Translations under genes and position numbers: made by a program
The notes under the pieces: generated by a model
Told to the model about the DNA's origin: nothing
Seen by the model: the letters and a program-made list of their open reading frames with translations, nothing else
Database searches by the model: none
Origin: an uncultured Nitrososphaerota archaeon
Lineage (GTDB): Archaea; Thermoproteota; EX4484-205; JAAOZP01
Length of the DNA stretch: 64,000 nt
Direction: 5' to 3'
Assembly (NCBI GenBank): GCA_964635675.1
Contig: CAZWPT010000003.1
Coordinates: 3,672-67,671, forward strand
Shown here: piece after piece, positions 21,766 to 44,175 of the stretch
Position numbering within the stretch: the first letter of the stretch is position 1
Layout: each line of letters begins with the position of its first letter

Positions 21766-22302
21766 ATGAAAAAAGAGATTGGCCTAGGAGAGTCATATAA
21801 GCTACTGCATCCTAGACCAGTAGTTCTTATATGTGCAAGAAGCAAGGAGGGCAGGGTTAATATCATGAGCTGCTCCTGGGTTACCCCTGTGAGCGACGAC
21901 CCTCCGCTTATAGCGATGTCTCTATGGGAGAAGGGATATACTCATACTTTGATAGACGAGACCAGAGAATTCACAGTAAACATCCCCTCTTCAAAGCTGC
22001 TTAAACAGGTTTGGCTGGCAGGCACCAGAAGCGGTAGTAAAATGGATAAGGCTAAGCTTCTAAAAGTTAGCTTCACAACCTCTAGCACCATTAAAGTGCC
22101 CGGAATAGAGGAATGCTTAGGGATCCTTGAATGCAGAGTCAGAGATAGAATGAAATTCGGAGAGCAGATACTATATGTCGCTGAAGTCAAAAGAGCATGC
22201 GCTGAAGAAGGCTTGTTCAAAAAAGGTGTATGGAGTAGTAAAGCAGAACCCCTGCTTCATCTTGCCGGCAAAGCCTTCTCAATACCCAGGCCGGTTGATT
22301 AA
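21766..22302 (+). CDS. Flavin reductase-like FMN-binding split-barrel protein
   Basis: 178 aa. LLHPRPVVLICARSKEGRVNIMSCSWVTPVSDDPPLIAMSL is typical of the flavin reductase-like domain. Confidence 0.75.
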   Translation: MKKEIGLGESYKLLHPRPVVLICARSKEGRVNIMSCSWVTPVSDDPPLIAMSLWEKGYTHTLIDETREFTVNIPSSKLLKQVWLAGTRSGSKMDKAKLLKVSFTTSSTIKVPGIEECLGILECRVRDRMKFGEQILYVAEVKRACAEEGLFKKGVWSSKAEPLLHLAGKAFSIPRPVD

Positions 22303-22439
22303 ACGGCAAACCCTGTCATTTTTCCCATTTCCTCTGACCATCATTCTTTTCTGCTTCCTTTACCAAATCGTTCAAACCGTTCAAAAATTTTCTAATAGAA
22401 TTTGTATTGCATGTTCTTTAAGAAAAATAAATATTAGGA

Positions 22440-22472
22440 AAAGCTCCGCGCCACGCGCTTAGTTGGAGCTTT
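22440..22472 (+). terminator. Stem-loop (8-bp stem AAAGCTCC/GGAGCTTT, 17-nt loop) followed by a T-rich run
   Basis: A perfect inverted repeat is seen directly, followed by CTATTTTTAG. It could be a transcript 3'-end structure downstream of the flavin reductase gene, or part of an ncRNA. Confidence 0.35.
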
Positions 22473-22486
22473 CTATTTTTAGAAAA
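22470..22486. promoter_or_regulatory. Palindrome TTTCTA-TTTT-TAGAAA(A), candidate operator (copy 1)
   Basis: Palindrome seen in sequence. A more complete copy CTTTTCTA-TTTT-TAGAAAAG lies at 22749-22768. Both are in the long AT-rich region upstream of the first URO-D-like gene. Confidence 0.35.
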
Positions 22487-22748
22487 CTCTGAAACACCCT
22501 TTTTGACTTTTCTAAATAGGGTGTGAGGCTTTTGTAAACAATACTTATATTCATTCTTTTTCGAAGCGTCTCACACCTAACGTTATTCGTAGACAATACT
22601 TATGGAGGCATCTTGTAGCAATGAAGCCGGCTTAATCATCAAAAGTTATTCAAGGCCGCGCTCTTAAATACAACAACACTAATAGAACACGGATATGAGG
22701 CTAAGCTATAAGAACCAGAGAGCACCATTAGATCATGCGGTAAGACCT

Positions 22749-22768
22749 CTTTTCTATTTTTAGAAAAG
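22749..22768. promoter_or_regulatory. Perfect 20-bp palindrome CTTTTCTATTTTTAGAAAAG, candidate operator (copy 2)
   Basis: Perfect palindrome seen in sequence, about 210 bp upstream of ATG 22980. Related to the copy at 22470-22486. Confidence 0.35.
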
Positions 22769-22948
22769 TCCACATAACGGCTTTCCGCTTTCAGTATTTT
22801 TGTCCAGCATCCCGATTTTCTTTTTCTTTAAAATTTTGAAATAGACTTTCTATAAGAAAAATATTGAAAAAGTTTTTACGAGTTTTTACTTTCATATCAA
22901 CCGGCGAGATTGAAAGAGTTTTGGAAAAATAATAAGGACATAATGAAT

Positions 22949-22958
22949 GTTTATATAA
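22949..22958 (+). promoter_or_regulatory. TATA box (GTTTATATAA) plus GGAGG upstream of the 22980 gene
   Basis: TATA-like box about 22 nt upstream of the ATG. GGAGG at 22971-22975. Confidence 0.45.
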
Positions 22959-22979
22959 CCCAATTTAGAGGGAGGCCCT

Positions 22980-24107
22980 ATGAACTCTTGGGAAAGAGTC
23001 GTAAAAGCTATGCAGCTTTCAGCACCCGATAGGGTTCCAATCTACGAGATGCACATCCCTCCTAAAATATCTTCAGTAATATTGAATAAGAACGTGAATG
23101 AAATCATGTATGCTAATGCCGAGGCCTTCTATAACCTGATAGTGTCAAAGGCAGAGATTAATCTAGATAAGTTGAATGCGCAAGTGGCGGAGGAACAGTT
23201 AACCCTTTACAAGAAGCTTGGGTTAGATTGGATAAGAGTTGGCGGAGCCTACACCGGCATTCCAAAGAATGTTAAAAAGCTTGAAGACAACGTGTGGCAG
23301 ATAAATGGCGGACGCTACAAATGGACAGGAGATACAGCTTGGTTTCTGGATGAGCCTAAAGAATACGATCCCGATGAGGTGATAAGGGCTTGCAAGAAGA
23401 GCAGTATAAGGGTGAACACCGGTGTTTTCGACGTGTTGAAGCGGATTTCCAAAAAAGTTAAGGGCGAGGTCTTTCTATCCTTTGACGCTGACGGAACTTG
23501 GGGGCCAATAGTTTCAAATCCAAATCTGCTTAAGCATGTTCTCGTCTGGGTGTATAGAAGACCTGATGCTGTTGAAGCTCTGATCAACTATCATACTGAA
23601 ATTGCAATAGAATACGGGAGGTATGCAATCGATGAGGGTGCTGATGCGATTCAGCTCTGCGTTGACTACGGTAATAAAAATGGTCCTTGGCTTTCTCCGC
23701 CGATGTTCAGAAGATTCGTGAAACCGGCCTTAGAGAGGCATGTGAATGAATTCAGAAGAAAAGGGGCTTTTGTAGTGGTTCATTCAGACGGTTATATCAT
23801 GCCGCTGCTGGGCGACATGGTGGATGCAGGGATTAATGCCTATCAGGGTATAGATGTAATAGCAGGCATGAACCTCAAGGAAGTCAAGGAGAAGTATGGG
23901 GATAGGATTTGCCTGGTTGGGAATGTCGACCCGAGGGTAATCGAGTACGGTACGAAGTCTGATGTGGAGAGAGAGGTTGAAAGGTGTCTCAGGGAGGGCG
24001 GAAAAGAGGGGTATATACTGTCAGCATCTGCCAACATTTCTATTAACACGAATGCTGAGAACTTCATGCATATGGTGGAGTATGCTAAGAAAATGTCGTA
24101 TGCTTAG
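22980..24107 (+). CDS. URO-D/MtaA-superfamily protein, paralog 1 (uroporphyrinogen decarboxylase-like / methyltransferase-like fold)
   Basis: 375 aa. N-terminal MNSWERVVKAMQLSAPDRVPIYE. Central ...AFVVVHSDGYIMP... and C-terminal GNVDPRVIEYG...GGKEGYILSASANI resemble the URO-D/MtaA family. About 65% identical to the 31485..32612 product. Confidence 0.65.
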   Translation: MNSWERVVKAMQLSAPDRVPIYEMHIPPKISSVILNKNVNEIMYANAEAFYNLIVSKAEINLDKLNAQVAEEQLTLYKKLGLDWIRVGGAYTGIPKNVKKLEDNVWQINGGRYKWTGDTAWFLDEPKEYDPDEVIRACKKSSIRVNTGVFDVLKRISKKVKGEVFLSFDADGTWGPIVSNPNLLKHVLVWVYRRPDAVEALINYHTEIAIEYGRYAIDEGADAIQLCVDYGNKNGPWLSPPMFRRFVKPALERHVNEFRRKGAFVVVHSDGYIMPLLGDMVDAGINAYQGIDVIAGMNLKEVKEKYGDRICLVGNVDPRVIEYGTKSDVEREVERCLREGGKEGYILSASANISINTNAENFMHMVEYAKKMSYA

Positions 24108-24603
24108 CTGCTTCACCTATTTTTCCGAATCTCCGAAGCGCCTCGCATTCCTGTTGTTGAATCTCGATAACACCGTGGACTTATGACGAGGAGACAGTTA
24201 AAAAGCAGGAGATACCCTCTTCTTCACGTTTACCTTGGGGACTATTATGTATATCCTGAGGATGAGAACTGTATGTTCATAAACGATGAATACCTGGTAG
24301 GAAACCTTTTAGTGACCCAGTGGTTAAAAGCGGTTGCAATGAAAGAAGCATCTACATACTCGAGACGCATGATGCAGAGCTGGCTACAATAATTAGAAAG
24401 ACGAGGAGGGAAATCTTCAACCTGTAAAGAAAAGGATTGGGCAATGTGTGGCGCGCTAGAAGAAACCCTGTGAAACAAGTCGGTTACGAATATTTCTGAA
24501 ACGCTCCGTAATCTTAGCTATAGGCATGCTGGGTAAAAAAATGGGTAAAAAATCGCACAAGTCTTATAAACCATGGCGTTACCTTAGTTGACGGTGGTGT
24601 GAA

Positions 24604-24985: not shown

Positions 24986-25288
24986 ATGGGAAAGGCGTTG
25001 CAAATAGTCCTAATCGTAGTGGAGGCTTTAATAACTCTCATTGTATTAACCCCCGTTTTTTTATGGCTTTTGTTGAATGTTTATCTAGTCAATTACAGGA
25101 TAGGAAAGAACAGGAAGAAGATGGTGAAGATGTTGAGGAGGGAAGGCTTACCGGAGGATACTTCCATCAAGATAGCTGAACACATGTTTCCTAAAATGGA
25201 GTTTTCCCCTTGGAGGCTTAGATCCATAATGAGTGGAGGAGAATCCGGTGGGAGGAAAGAGGGGAAAACTGATTGGAAAGCAGGATAG
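24986..25288 (+). CDS. Hypothetical small membrane protein
   Basis: 100 aa, with one or two N-terminal TM helices. Confidence 0.3.
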   Translation: MGKALQIVLIVVEALITLIVLTPVFLWLLLNVYLVNYRIGKNRKKMVKMLRREGLPEDTSIKIAEHMFPKMEFSPWRLRSIMSGGESGGRKEGKTDWKAG

Positions 25289-25677
25289 ACGAGCTTGTCA
25301 GGAAGATCAATCTTCTTGAAGAAGAGCTTAGGAAAGAAAGGGAGTTGAACAGGGATATATTGCGAGAGTTGGCTGTCGTTAGAAGCATCCTCTCCTTAAG
25401 TTCAGATGCCTATAAGACTTCTAAGAAAATAAGCCTCCTCTCAGAAAGCCTAAGAGCAGGACCATTAGCTAGAGATATAACTGAAATATTGATAGCTGAG
25501 GGGCCATTAAACATATCTCAGCTGACTAATCTACTGAGAGAAATTAGAGGAAGGGCCTCTCGGAAAACGGTTGCAAAGAAGCTTAGAGAATTAATGGAGC
25601 TAGGGATTGTAGATGCGATAGAAGGAAAAAAGAGTGAAAAGCTCTTTAAAGTACGAAGCGAAGATTCAAGCAAGTAG
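25273..25677 (+). CDS. Putative winged-HTH transcriptional regulator
   Basis: 134 aa. An N-terminal coiled-coil is followed by an HTH-like segment (ITEILIAEGPLNISQLTNLL...LMELGIVDAIEG). Confidence 0.4.
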   Translation: MESRIDELVRKINLLEEELRKERELNRDILRELAVVRSILSLSSDAYKTSKKISLLSESLRAGPLARDITEILIAEGPLNISQLTNLLREIRGRASRKTVAKKLRELMELGIVDAIEGKKSEKLFKVRSEDSSK

Positions 25678-43382: not shown

Positions 43383-43850
43383 GTGCTATCCATGCGTGCG
43401 CTCGCCTTCATTATAGGCCGGATTCTTAAAACTTTAATAATGGCCTCTGAATATTTTCTCGTAATGCCGCGTATTGATGAAGTGAGGCTTTTGAGGAAGA
43501 GGGCAAAATCCTTTTTCGTAAGAGCCCTAGAGAGCTTAAATTCAGGGGATTATGACTTAGCCGCCTTCTTATCTGAGCAGTCGGTACAGCTTTATCTTAA
43601 ATCGATATTACTGGAAAAAATAGGTGATTATCCCAGAGTACACTCGATCCTAACTCTTGCCTTTATCCTTAAGAAACTACCTGATTGCAAAGACCTTGCA
43701 GAATTTCTCGACAAAAAGAAAGCCGAGGTTCGCTTGCTGGAAGACGCGTATATAGCTTCAAGATACTTATTAAGGGAGTATGTTAAAGAAGAAGCTGAAA
43801 TGCTCGTAAACGTTGCAAGCGAGGTTTTAAAGTATGGAGAACTATGTTGA
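43383..43850 (+). CDS. HEPN-domain protein (toxin-antitoxin partner of MNT)
   Basis: 155 aa, helical. Gene order and 17-nt overlap with the downstream MNT gene are typical of archaeal HEPN-MNT pairs. Confidence 0.55.
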   Translation: MLSMRALAFIIGRILKTLIMASEYFLVMPRIDEVRLLRKRAKSFFVRALESLNSGDYDLAAFLSEQSVQLYLKSILLEKIGDYPRVHSILTLAFILKKLPDCKDLAEFLDKKKAEVRLLEDAYIASRYLLREYVKEEAEMLVNVASEVLKYGELC

Positions 43851-44175
43851 CATTCTCATAAAGAGGGCCGAAATGGTTAGAAACTGGAGAGAGTATATAA
43901 ATAGTATAGTGGAAACTGTGAAGTCTGTTCTACCAGATTCGAAAATTTATGTTTTTGGAAGTGTAGTGAAAGGCGAATCCACCGGTGGGAGTGATGTAGA
44001 TATACTGGTGGTTTCAGAAAGAATCCCAAGGAACAATCTAGAAAGGGCAGGATTAAAGATAAGAATAGAGGAGCTTTCAAACCTTCCGCCATATCATCCG
44101 TTTGAATTTCATTTGGCGGATAGAGAAGAAGGAGAATGGTACTTTAAGAGAATTAAAGAGCTAATAGAATATTAA
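43834..44175 (+). CDS. Minimal nucleotidyltransferase (MNT) of a HEPN-MNT pair
   Basis: 113 aa. GSVVKGESTGGSDVDILVV equals the GSxxxGxxxxxSDxD nucleotidyltransferase motif. Confidence 0.8.
   Translation: MENYVDILIKRAEMVRNWREYINSIVETVKSVLPDSKIYVFGSVVKGESTGGSDVDILVVSERIPRNNLERAGLKIRIEELSNLPPYHPFEFHLADREEGEWYFKRIKELIEY

Follow-up and report, generated by a model that had tools for sequence, protein, structure and literature searches.

A conserved, mirror-symmetric non-coding region upstream of a URO-D/MtaA-like gene in a hot-spring archaeon as a possible multi-operator platform

The 677-nt gap (positions 22303-22979) between a flavin-reductase gene and a URO-D/MtaA-like gene of a hot-spring archaeon contains two inverted arms of ~125 nt (22364-22486 and 22749-22885), each with two TTCT..AGAA palindromes. 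The four palindromes (TTTCT-N3/N6-AGAAA) are arranged mirror-symmetrically about a 263-nt core, and the gap can be aligned end to end across ~8-9 related lineages (Thermoproteota/Brockarchaeota-like). Comparison with these relatives supports the view that the region is functional non-coding DNA under purifying selection. Based on the sequence, we tentatively propose that it is a conserved multi-operator protein-binding platform on double-stranded DNA for a putative dimeric regulator, a reading to which we would give somewhat less than an even chance.

The gap is the longest non-coding region within the window, that is, the whole 64-kb stretch of DNA analysed. A preliminary description of this DNA put the other intergenic regions at 40-150 bp, which is roughly correct, but gaps of 496, 245, 237, 204 and 202 nt are present too; the next gap, that of 496 nt, is a dead GH31 gene. 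A pseudogene remnant was rejected for the 677-nt gap, which, unlike the GH31 remnant, holds no trace of the neighbour proteins of lineage L046 (ABC permease, amino-acid permease). The dominant feature of the gap, namely the large inverted arms and the indel-free core, was missed in that description.

Inverted arms, boxes and core

The left arm (22364-22486) consists of box 1L, an A/T run, a variable stretch of ~45 nt that includes a hairpin, and box 2L; the right arm (22749-22885) is an inverted copy of it. Using nhmmer with a family profile, we matched the left arm to 22749-22873 on the opposite strand (E 7e-7), and its local alignment with the reverse complement of 22749-22885 scored 67, compared with 24.6 +/- 4.0 for shuffled sequences. 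An alignment of eight arms from four lineages also supports the inverted relation. Overall likeness between the two arms is only ~68%, but their boxes do not differ, either from arm to arm or from lineage to lineage. Inverted symmetry extending out to the proximal promoter block was only marginal (10/500 and 19/500 shuffles).

Box 1L (22388-22403, TTTTCTAATAGAATTT) is near-invariant in all lineages except the L022 type, and its centre is a perfect 11-bp palindrome, TTCTA-A-TAGAA (22390-22400). Box 2L, or palindrome 1 (22470-22485, TTTCTA-TTTT-TAGAAA), has arms conserved in all lineages around a centre that reads TTTTT in 5 lineages and AAAAA in 3. Box 2R, or palindrome 2 (22749-22768, CTTTTCTA-TTTT-TAGAAAAG), is 90-100% identical in all lineages, and box 1R (22847-22859) reads TTTCTATAAGAAA, with the reverse complement TTTCTTATAGAAA. 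The spacing from box 1 to box 2 is unequal between the arms (81 vs 96 nt) and tolerates indels. Palindromes 1 and 2 lie 278-281 nt apart in 5 lineages, and the outer boxes are ~470 nt apart. Sites of the TGM type (for example TATCAC-N5-GTGATA) serve as operators for the TrmB family; the TTCTA..TAGAA boxes, judged by eye, are unlike those of TrmB/TrmBL1.

Between the boxes of the left arm there is an A-run (22417-22431, TTTAAGAAAAATAAA), which gives T-runs when read on the minus strand and lies where this arm is richest in AT (GC 23%). Its counterpart in the right arm is a T-run cluster (22816-22838, TTTTCTTTTTCTTTAAAATTTT; GC 17-27%), and the AAGAA.AA columns are invariant in both arms. The A-run may be a weak TATA, or may terminate, as an oligo-T signal, transcripts that leave the core.

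The central core (22486-22748) has a GC content of ~40%, near the 43-50% typical of the window. Within it, a stretch of 169 nt (22518-22686) shows no insertion or deletion in nine lineage representatives; conservation in this block has neither a 3-nt nor a 10.5-nt periodicity. The core carries two to three GTAGNCAAT direct repeats (the repeat motif is also given as GTAGNCAATRCTTAT). Copy 1 (22531-22548) reads TTTGTAAACAATACTTAT, and in other lineages GTAGACAAT... or GTGAACAAT...; copy 2 (22586-22603, TTCGTAGACAATACTTAT) follows at 55 nt, a spacing that is invariant because the block is free of indels; and a third, shorter copy, GTAGCAATG, is found at 22615-22623. The 15-nt repeats of the preliminary description, GTAAACAATACTTAT (22534-22548) and GTAGACAATACTTAT (22589-22603), were confirmed and are conserved in relatives. 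A central palindrome, ATGAAGC-CG-GCTTAAT (22621-22636), keeps its GAAGC..GCTT arms around a variable centre of 2-3 nt and lies within ~10 nt of the midpoint of the four boxes, as calculated from their coordinates. The best-conserved block (22663-22687, CTTAAATACAACAACACTAATAGAA) combines a TATA-like TTAAATA with a CTAATAGAA half-box that is identical to part of box 1L, and is kept even in L022/L046, the most distant lineage. An isolated conserved motif, TTAGATCAT (22728-22736), lies within the otherwise variable stretch 22690-22748.

Other symmetric elements noticed earlier fared less well in relatives. Palindrome 2 was read as before (CTTTTCTATTTTTAGAAAAG, 22749-22768), and palindrome 1 (TTTCTATTTTTAGAAA) is present, with its end at 22485 rather than 22486. 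The degenerate third half-site, CTTTTCTAAATAG, exists at 22507-22519 instead of 22509-22521, and the inverted repeat GGTGTGAG (22520-22527)/CTCACACC (22570-22577) exists as described, but neither is maintained in relatives. The same holds for the 8-bp-stem hairpin (22440-22472), formed by AAAGCTCC (22440-22447) and GGAGCTTT (22465-22472) around a 17-nt loop, with a T5 run on its 3' side (22476-22480). Its stem has 1 mismatch in L019 and L012 and 2 in L008, and is largely lost in L006 and L021; the substitutions break pairs and none compensate. A bacterial-type promoter/terminator scan, which is uninformative here, did not call it. Given the long loop, the missing call and the non-compensatory stem changes, we rejected the hairpin as an intrinsic-terminator-like element.

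Conservation, gene neighbourhood and the rightward promoter

In relatives, identity is 60-65% at third codon positions of URO-D, 44-55% in the variable parts of the gap, 67-75% in the core and 90-100% at palindrome 2. Conservation is 90-100% in the four boxes (1L, 2L, 2R, 1R) and in the direct repeats, compared with 45-65% for the neutral proxies, a footprint as for an operator array. The conserved units are primary-sequence blocks of 10-25 nt with variable spacers between them, and the palindrome arms are kept while the centres vary or even flip.

We also evaluated the gap against chance by shuffling its 677 nt 1000 times with dinucleotides preserved. Together, the two palindromes form an exact repeat of 17 nt, which was matched in 0/1000 shuffles (mean longest shuffled repeat, 9.8), and three TTCTA..TAGAA palindromes also in 0/1000 (shuffle mean, 0.019). 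Palindromes with arms of at least 6 nt were not above chance (3 seen vs a shuffle mean of 2.3), nor was an 8-nt arm, seen in 12% of shuffles. That the features are functionless products of chance in AT-rich spacer DNA is hardly credible: single palindromes and 8-nt stems are indeed common in the shuffled region, and three previously listed features are not conserved, but such a reading is contradicted by the end-to-end conservation, by blocks so far above the neutral proxies, by the 169-nt indel-free stretch and by the repeated palindrome that no shuffle reproduced.

The URO-D/MtaA-like gene (22980-24107, plus strand) was assigned by Pfam PF01208 (E 4e-39), sub-threshold NCBIfam MtaA-like matches and synteny, and is the neighbour most constantly linked to the element. 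Its family is expanded and embedded among sugar-utilisation genes. The element is present at the same place in every lineage with this URO-D orthologue, and no empty site was seen; the closest homologue that lacks it (L049, 79%) sits in an unrelated context. No second copy is present in the 64-kb window or in any of the fetched flanks. The left-hand neighbours vary between lineages, and the flanking flavin-reductase gene decays in 3 lineages, in which the element is intact. At the gap in the window, gene orientation is non-divergent and GC skew merely tracks gene strand. In L046-48, the element is located between divergent genes, and in the L022/L046 lineage the left arm faces a divergent ABC-permease gene. 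In L046, URO-D is preceded by a duplicated promoter module that retains the proximal block 22908-22932; the duplicated module of L046-48 consists of a clear proximal block and TATA, with a palindrome-2-like stretch that is only degenerate. The duplication accompanied the arrival of a permease gene between the right-hand module and URO-D.

From 39 genes within the window we derived a promoter matrix, with which we scanned 22250-23000. The best match (score 11.2) was the URO-D TATA box (22950-22958, plus strand, TTTATATAA), which is invariant in relatives. It begins 30 nt before the ATG; therefore, the URO-D mRNA would be leaderless or nearly so. Nothing else in 22250-23000 scored like the real promoters of the 39-gene matrix, and the palindromes are without an A-rich BRE. 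A block at 22908-22932 (plus strand, GATTGAAAGAGTTTTGGAAAAATAA) is conserved in all lineages and is the only promoter-proximal one; the box closest to the TATA box, 1R, has its end ~90 nt further upstream.

We favour the multi-operator platform because the gap aligns end to end and is non-coding DNA under purifying selection; because its conserved units are short sequence blocks in which palindrome arms are kept; because the boxes are identical in arms that are otherwise rather diverged; because there is neither a conserved RNA fold nor codon periodicity; and because the element is intact where the flavin-reductase gene decays. The divergent placement and module duplication in L046-48 are as expected of a promoter-associated module. 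On this model, the four boxes would be occupied by a dimeric, sequence-specific candidate regulator, and the core sites might be held by other factors or by further copies of the same regulator. The arms could be bridged or looped into a single nucleoprotein complex, whose fixed geometry would account for the indel intolerance of the core. This complex would set the activity of the rightward promoter of the putatively leaderless URO-D. The left arm may control the divergent ABC-permease gene too in L022/L046, probably the ancestral state; in the lineage of the window, the left-hand gene would have been replaced, with the left arm surviving as the partner of the right arm.

Some observations argue against the platform. 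The boxes are 90-480 nt away from the TATA box on its upstream side, and well-studied archaeal operators usually abut or overlap BRE/TATA. Box spacing is unequal and indel-tolerant, and conservation lacks a 10.5-nt periodicity. In a search for a regulon, none of the 35 other intergenic regions in the 64 kb had a paired site (0-1 half-sites each vs 7 in this gap), and the box motif was found at none of the distant URO-D loci searched. A literature search for the motif returned primers and unrelated matches only.

These results bear on the earlier proposal of a regulatory hub with operators for named regulators of sugar genes. Operators remain plausible, since the palindromes and direct repeats are phylogenetic footprints as for operators; the named regulators and the sugar regulon are unsupported. 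The TTTCTA-TTTT-TAGAAA palindrome occurs only at its two places across the whole 64 kb; no other promoter there carries it, and there is no paired site in the 35 other gaps of the window. The suggested TrmB-like protein is encoded 18 kb away. As for the other candidate, the 134-aa protein (25273-25677), its wHTH matches are sub-threshold, and the L006/L042 lineage, where the element is retained, lacks this protein within 3-4 kb.

Transcription, mobility and replication as alternatives

The main rival of the platform, which we consider unlikely, is that the core forms a transcription unit that has escaped annotation, the minus strand being the more plausible. Its transcript would begin near 22640 or ~22800, stop in the T-runs at ~22420 and serve either as a base-pairing sRNA without structure or as a leaderless message for MIKPASLLQDASISIVYE, a peptide of 18 residues. 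In that case the arms might be regulated entry/exit zones, because each has candidate oligo-T termination signals on its outward strand; T-runs are kept in both arms on the strand leaving the core. The conserved block spans ~22690 to 22440, as a promoter plus transcript would.

An ncRNA gene, the other earlier suggestion for this region, was not borne out. No Rfam family reached its gathering score anywhere in the window, and at E<=10 the region gave only sub-threshold terminator-like or chance matches (E ~1); ARAGORN found no tRNA or tmRNA. The consensus fold was no better than that of column-shuffled alignments on either strand, and a structured ncRNA is thus unsupported (alifold z +1.5 for the plus and -0.4 for the minus strand). 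The RNAalifold covariation terms for the two strands, -1.05 and -0.54 kcal/mol, were near zero, and single-sequence fold z-scores reached only -2.0 and -1.7. C/D-box and H/ACA RNAs were dismissed by eye, as the minus-strand TGATGA and plus-strand CTGA are not conserved in relatives. Weakly in favour of a minus-strand RNA, several one-sided substitutions are wobble-compatible on that strand only, 91% of cells in the minus-strand structure are paired, and its covariation score was exceeded by 4/500 shuffles. Against it, besides the folding controls and the lack of an Rfam match, the GC content of the core would be low for a structural RNA of a hot-spring organism.

The candidate peptide is encoded by a micro-ORF (22583-22639, minus strand, 18 codons, MIKPASLLQDASISIVYE*). 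This frame (16-18 codons) is open in all lineages (10/10 sequences compared), its pN/pS of 0.42-0.49 is the lowest among stop-free windows, and its variable columns are distributed 6/6/11 by codon position, third positions being the most variable. A conserved TATA-like TATTTAAG starts 32 nt upstream of its ATG, a spacing typical of leaderless genes here. On the other hand, this box scores poorly in the promoter matrix in both orientations because it is without an A-rich BRE, and the ATG is GTG in most other lineages. Direct repeat 2 makes up the 3' end of the micro-ORF, and repeat copy 1, no less conserved, is not part of a conserved ORF. Support for coding is weak (pN/pS at about the 5th percentile among all windows, chi-square not significant, no 3-nt periodicity); six-frame ORF conservation, Nei-Gojobori scans and periodicity revealed no other coding signal in the region. 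Translation of the micro-ORF is doubtful. A plus-strand open frame (22516-22635) was discarded, as it has no start codon.

The arms themselves raise another possibility, a fossil non-autonomous mobile element (MITE-like or palindrome-associated) that inserted before the lineages split and was later co-opted or is slowly decaying. Inverted arms of this length and likeness around a short non-coding core are what terminal inverted repeats would look like, two palindromic sites of 20 nt that could form hairpins are located close to where arms and core meet, and the left-hand neighbours differ between lineages. We regard such an origin as quite improbable: the element is single-copy in the window and all fetched flanks, occupies the same position wherever the URO-D orthologue occurs with no empty site (the context of L049 being unrelated), and has boxes and a core conserved well above the neutral proxies, unlike what would be seen in a dead MITE. 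The window yielded no transposase, and the 25-mer core block had no matches in viral contigs; a viral-contig scan with a 15-mer gave unrelated single matches only, read as chance.

Very improbable, in our judgement, is a lineage-specific DNA-transaction site, either a segregation/recombination site or a replication origin with diverged inverted ORB-like dyads (TTCTA-N-TAGAA for TTCCA-N-TGGAA) and unlinked to an initiator gene. In favour of such a site, the single-copy element, in the longest non-coding region of the window, combines high conservation, inverted repeated boxes and a fixed internal geometry, and persists while its left neighbours change. Only 3 positions separate box 1L (TTCTAATAGAA) from the mini-ORB dyad of Pyrococcus (TTCCAGTGGAA). 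However, the boxes read TTCT...GAA and not the ORB core TTCC...GAA, and in known ORBs the TTCC motif is perfectly conserved (PMC1904270). Among the ~47 ORFs of the 64-kb window (Pfam, ORFs >=100 aa), there was no Orc1/Cdc6, WhiP or MCM gene, and no recombinase gene was found nearby. The AT-richest DNA is in the arms (GC 17-23%) and not in the core, the reverse of the ORB-DUE-ORB layout; the genes are not divergently oriented, and GC skew follows gene strand.

Significance and comparison with known systems

Archaea have compact genomes, and those of their promoters that have been studied well are controlled from sites directly at the TATA box. Here, a 640-nt mirror-symmetric multi-palindrome region with an indel-free core is conserved in hot-spring lineages, while the genes on both sides change or decay. 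Were it regulatory, it would count as an unusually elaborate archaeal control region, possibly one that loops, and would supply a defined DNA bait for finding the regulator of the expanded URO-D/MtaA-like family. Otherwise, it would point to a small gene missed in annotation, or to a DNA-transaction site, in a lineage without a cultured member.

The hairpin with the sequence on its 3' side (GCTCC..GGAGC, then TTTCT.TTTT) resembles the terminator stem of the Rfam PyrG leader (RF02371), a leader family from Gram-positive bacteria, but its 24.7 bits (E 0.85) are far below the gathering score of 65 bits, and the hairpin is not conserved in relatives. With MITEs and palindrome-associated transposable elements, the region shares long inverted arms, a short non-coding core and hairpin-forming sites near the ends; unlike MITEs, it is single-copy, orthologous in all lineages and apparently under purifying selection. 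Archaeal oriC regions with ORB/mini-ORB elements (PMC1904270, PMC4010727) are likewise long, conserved, AT-rich intergenic regions with inverted dyad boxes, and box 1L resembles the mini-ORB dyad; they differ from our region, in which there is no TTCC core, no adjacent initiator gene was found and AT-rich DNA lies in the arms and not between the boxes.

Regulatory precedents are closer to the platform that we tentatively favour. In archaea, Lrp/AsnC-type or other wHTH regulators bind multi-box regions cooperatively, and the Ss-LrpB control region has three regularly spaced palindromic boxes. As in Ss-LrpB-type regions, several short palindromes with conserved arms of 4-6 nt and an A/T-rich centre lie upstream of BRE/TATA. 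Unlike in those regions, the outer boxes here are ~470 nt apart and far from the TATA box, two ~125-nt mirror arms surround a separate conserved core, and no regulator gene adjoins the element. In bacteria, looping operator sets include gal OE/OI, deo O1/O2/OE and ara O2/I1. Our region differs from these in its archaeal TBP/TFB promoter, its four boxes plus core sites and the putative nature of its looping, but has in common with them identical palindromes, here candidate operators, placed hundreds of bp apart at a conserved spacing (278-281 nt in 5 lineages).

Symmetric elements in the intergenic region

The 677-nt gap (22303-22979) between a flavin-reductase-domain gene (21766-22302), which lies upstream on the same strand, and a URO-D/MtaA-like gene (22980-24107) is the longest non-coding gap of the window. 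Every feature listed in the preliminary description was found in the sequence, with the half-site coordinates off by 2 nt: a hairpin at 22440-22472 (AAAGCTCC, 17 nt, GGAGCTTT, then a T5 run), palindrome 1 (TTTCTATTTTTAGAAA, 22470-22485), palindrome 2 (CTTTTCTATTTTTAGAAAAG, 22749-22768), a third half-site (CTTTTCTAAATAG, 22507-22519), an 8-nt inverted repeat (GGTGTGAG, 22520-22527; CTCACACC, 22570-22577) and 15-nt direct repeats (22534-22548 and 22589-22603). Among 1000 shuffled versions of the gap with dinucleotides preserved, none contained the 17-nt exact repeat made by both palindromes, and none contained three TTCTA..TAGAA palindromes (mean 0.019); palindromes in general and 8-nt stems were ordinary at this composition. 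Across the 64 kb, the palindrome is confined to its two sites in the gap.

The dominant features had been missed in that list and were seen by profile self-match and alignment. Matched in reverse to itself, the family profile identified 22368-22485 as an inverted copy of 22749-22873 (E 7e-7), and pairwise local alignment of the two arms scored 67 (shuffles, 24.6 +/- 4.0). Each arm contains box 1 (TTTTCTWATAGAA), a AAGAAAAA run, ~45 variable nt and box 2 (TTTCTA-W5-TAGAAA); the four boxes are thus arranged in mirror symmetry, centred at ~22395, 22478, 22759 and 22853, around a 263-nt core. Box sequences do not differ between arms or across lineages, even though the arms overall are only ~68% alike. 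The arms are the AT-richest DNA (17-23% GC; core, ~40%). In the core there are GTAGNCAAT direct repeats with start-to-start spacings of 55 nt and 26 nt and, near the midpoint of the four boxes, a palindrome (GAAGC-nn-GCTT). The core also contains CTTAAATACAACAAYACTAATAGAA, the best-conserved block, in which a box-1 half-site recurs.

Promoter and gene neighborhood

Most genes of the window possess a TTTAWAWA TATA box starting ~28-33 nt ahead of the start codon, which points to mainly leaderless mRNAs in this organism. The URO-D gene shows the same pattern as these leaderless genes: its TATA box (22950-22958), ~30 nt before the start, gave the top promoter-matrix score in the scanned stretch 22250-23000. 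This gene is one of six URO-D/MtaA-like paralogues in the 64 kb (22980, 27984 (minus), 31485, 37867 (minus), 42150 (minus) and 58812 (minus)), set among genes for glycoside hydrolases and sugar-converting enzymes; the genes interspersed with them are GH2, two copies of GH38, raffinose-synthase-like, PfkB, fucose-isomerase, DUF6807 and xylose-isomerase-like TIM-barrel. Such an expansion in a sugar-utilisation setting is unusual.

The second-longest gap (24108-24603, 496 nt) is the remnant of a GH31 glycoside-hydrolase gene: tblastn matches the intact GH31 protein from a related contig (L046, 4271-6184) to 24164-24424 (E 3e-10). Conservation in relatives is limited to the final ~75 nt, the promoter of the following gene. 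At 24530-24552, TGGGTAAAAAA occurs twice in a perfect tandem repeat with a 12-nt period; the TATA box of a conserved cluster of three genes (123, 100 and 134 aa) follows closely. This repeat may be a separate operator. The last protein of the cluster (134 aa) has weak winged-helix matches. Elsewhere, a HEPN-domain gene adjoins a minimal nucleotidyltransferase gene (43383-44175), the usual HEPN/MNT toxin-antitoxin-like pair, and two long ORFs on opposite strands overlap almost fully (272-1300 minus, 288-1250 plus); the plus-strand ORF, the only one of the two scanned, had no Pfam match.

Conservation in related lineages

Related loci were collected by a single scan each of genomes and of metagenomes, plus a protein search with subsequent contig look-ups. 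The 677 nt are 100% identical across 4 contigs, each from a different metagenome or read-set sample; the closest genome records are MAGs with the labels Thermoproteota, 'Thaumarchaeota' and Candidatus Brockarchaeota, which makes the source an uncultured archaeon. The element is present in ~8-9 distinct lineages, and the gap is alignable end to end. At a divergence that leaves URO-D third codon positions 60-65% identical, identity is 44-55% in the variable parts of the gap, 67-75% in block 22436-22700, 73-86% in 22815-22865 and 90-100% in palindrome 2. No indel occurs in 22518-22686 (169 nt) in nine lineage representatives, and palindromes 1 and 2 are 278-281 nt apart in five lineages. Clearly, short blocks of primary sequence are under purifying selection, the palindrome arms are conserved and the geometry of the core is fixed. 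That the element has no function is the least likely of the readings considered, and most improbable.

Among the features first described, conservation extends to the two palindromes and the two direct repeats. The hairpin, whose pairs are lost in relatives without compensation, is not conserved, and variable sequence surrounds the third half-site as well as the GGTGTGAG/CTCACACC repeat. Five lineages carry TTTTT at the centre of palindrome 1 and three carry AAAAA, between arms that stay the same. This inversion of the 5-nt centre (window 22474-22481; same position in the related loci L006, L042, L043, L021, L045, L022 and L046) looks like a micro-inversion inside the palindrome.

The element remains intact in three lineages where the adjoining flavin-reductase gene is fragmentary. 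That gene, intact in the window, shows an internal deletion of ~220 nt or is left as fragments alone in the related loci L008, L012 and L021/L044. In one further lineage (related contigs L022 and L046-L048), the left neighbor of the element is a divergent ABC-permease gene and the right neighbor is a gene for an amino-acid permease. The latter separates the element from the URO-D gene, and the proximal promoter module is duplicated (L022, 1-2500; L046-L048, 700-3000): URO-D, following the permease gene, has its own proximal block and TATA box, preceded by a degenerate palindrome-2-like stretch alone. This context indicates that part of the right-hand module moves with promoters and that the left arm is able to face a real gene; in the window lineage, the left neighbor is different and convergent, which leaves the left arm without a gene. 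The right-hand module is associated with promoters. At more distant URO-D loci, the upstream regions are short and unrelated.

Candidate functions of the element

The gap had been proposed to encode an ncRNA. No Rfam family was found at the gathering score, and matches at E<=10 were at chance level only (the best, a terminator-like likeness to the PyrG leader, scored 24.7 bits, the cut-off being 65); a tRNA/tmRNA search found none. Single-sequence folding gave z = -2.0 and -1.7, RNAalifold covariation terms were near zero, and the consensus fold of 22518-22700 in nine lineages was no better than shuffled columns (z +1.5 and -0.4 for the two strands); the proposal is not supported. Pair counting weakly supported a few small minus-strand hairpins, inside the tool's own quoted false-positive range.

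On the minus strand, every lineage keeps open an 18-codon ORF (22639-22583), which has a TATA-like box 32 nt upstream. In most other lineages it starts with GTG. Its variable columns are distributed 6/6/11 by codon position, and its pN/pS is 0.42-0.49 (~5th percentile), a substitution pattern that appears only mildly protein-like. Its 3' end is direct repeat 2, whose twin is equally conserved but non-coding, and conservation in the core block has no 3-nt periodicity. The element shows no conserved RNA fold and no clear coding signal. The main rival reading, that the core itself is transcribed from the minus strand into either an unstructured sRNA or the mRNA of a micro-ORF, with the arm T-runs as terminators, is rather unlikely; it is compatible with binding of a protein to the same DNA, and the two are not exclusive.

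Less likely than either is a fossil MITE, which we consider improbable: the element is single-copy, orthologous in every carrying lineage and selectively constrained; no transposase was found in the window, and the 25-mer core block had no viral match. About equally improbable is an origin or other DNA-transaction site. Known ORBs retain perfectly conserved TTCC and GAA (PMC1904270), and the boxes here have TTCT instead; AT-rich DNA is found on the outer sides of the boxes rather than between them, and no Orc1/Cdc6, WhiP or MCM domain was found in the ORFs of the window.

We tentatively favor a protein-bound, multi-site element controlling one or more promoters, a reading that falls somewhat short of even probability; part of the probability goes to none of the readings considered. 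A dimeric, sequence-specific DNA-binding protein would occupy the four boxes, and further sites in the core would be bound as well; the arms would be joined into one complex controlling initiation at the rightward leaderless promoter. Ancestrally, the same complex may also have controlled a divergent promoter on the left. The notion of a regulatory hub is supported in part, by the conserved non-coding palindromes and repeats. Half-sites do not pile up elsewhere (7 in this gap, 0-1 in each of the 35 other gaps of the window), and the suggested link to the TrmB-like regulator found no support.

The element is a real, conserved non-coding element, for which we infer a regulatory function. Its architecture is unusual for archaea and offers concrete experiments. 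It does not qualify as a structured RNA, an oriC or a MITE by the defining features tested. Compared with the sites of named regulators, it is not assignable: the distance from its boxes to the TATA box is unusually large, and its motif has no visible regulon in the 64-kb window. By analogy, it would work most like a multi-operator control region, a class that includes archaeal Lrp-type multi-box regions and bacterial looping operators.
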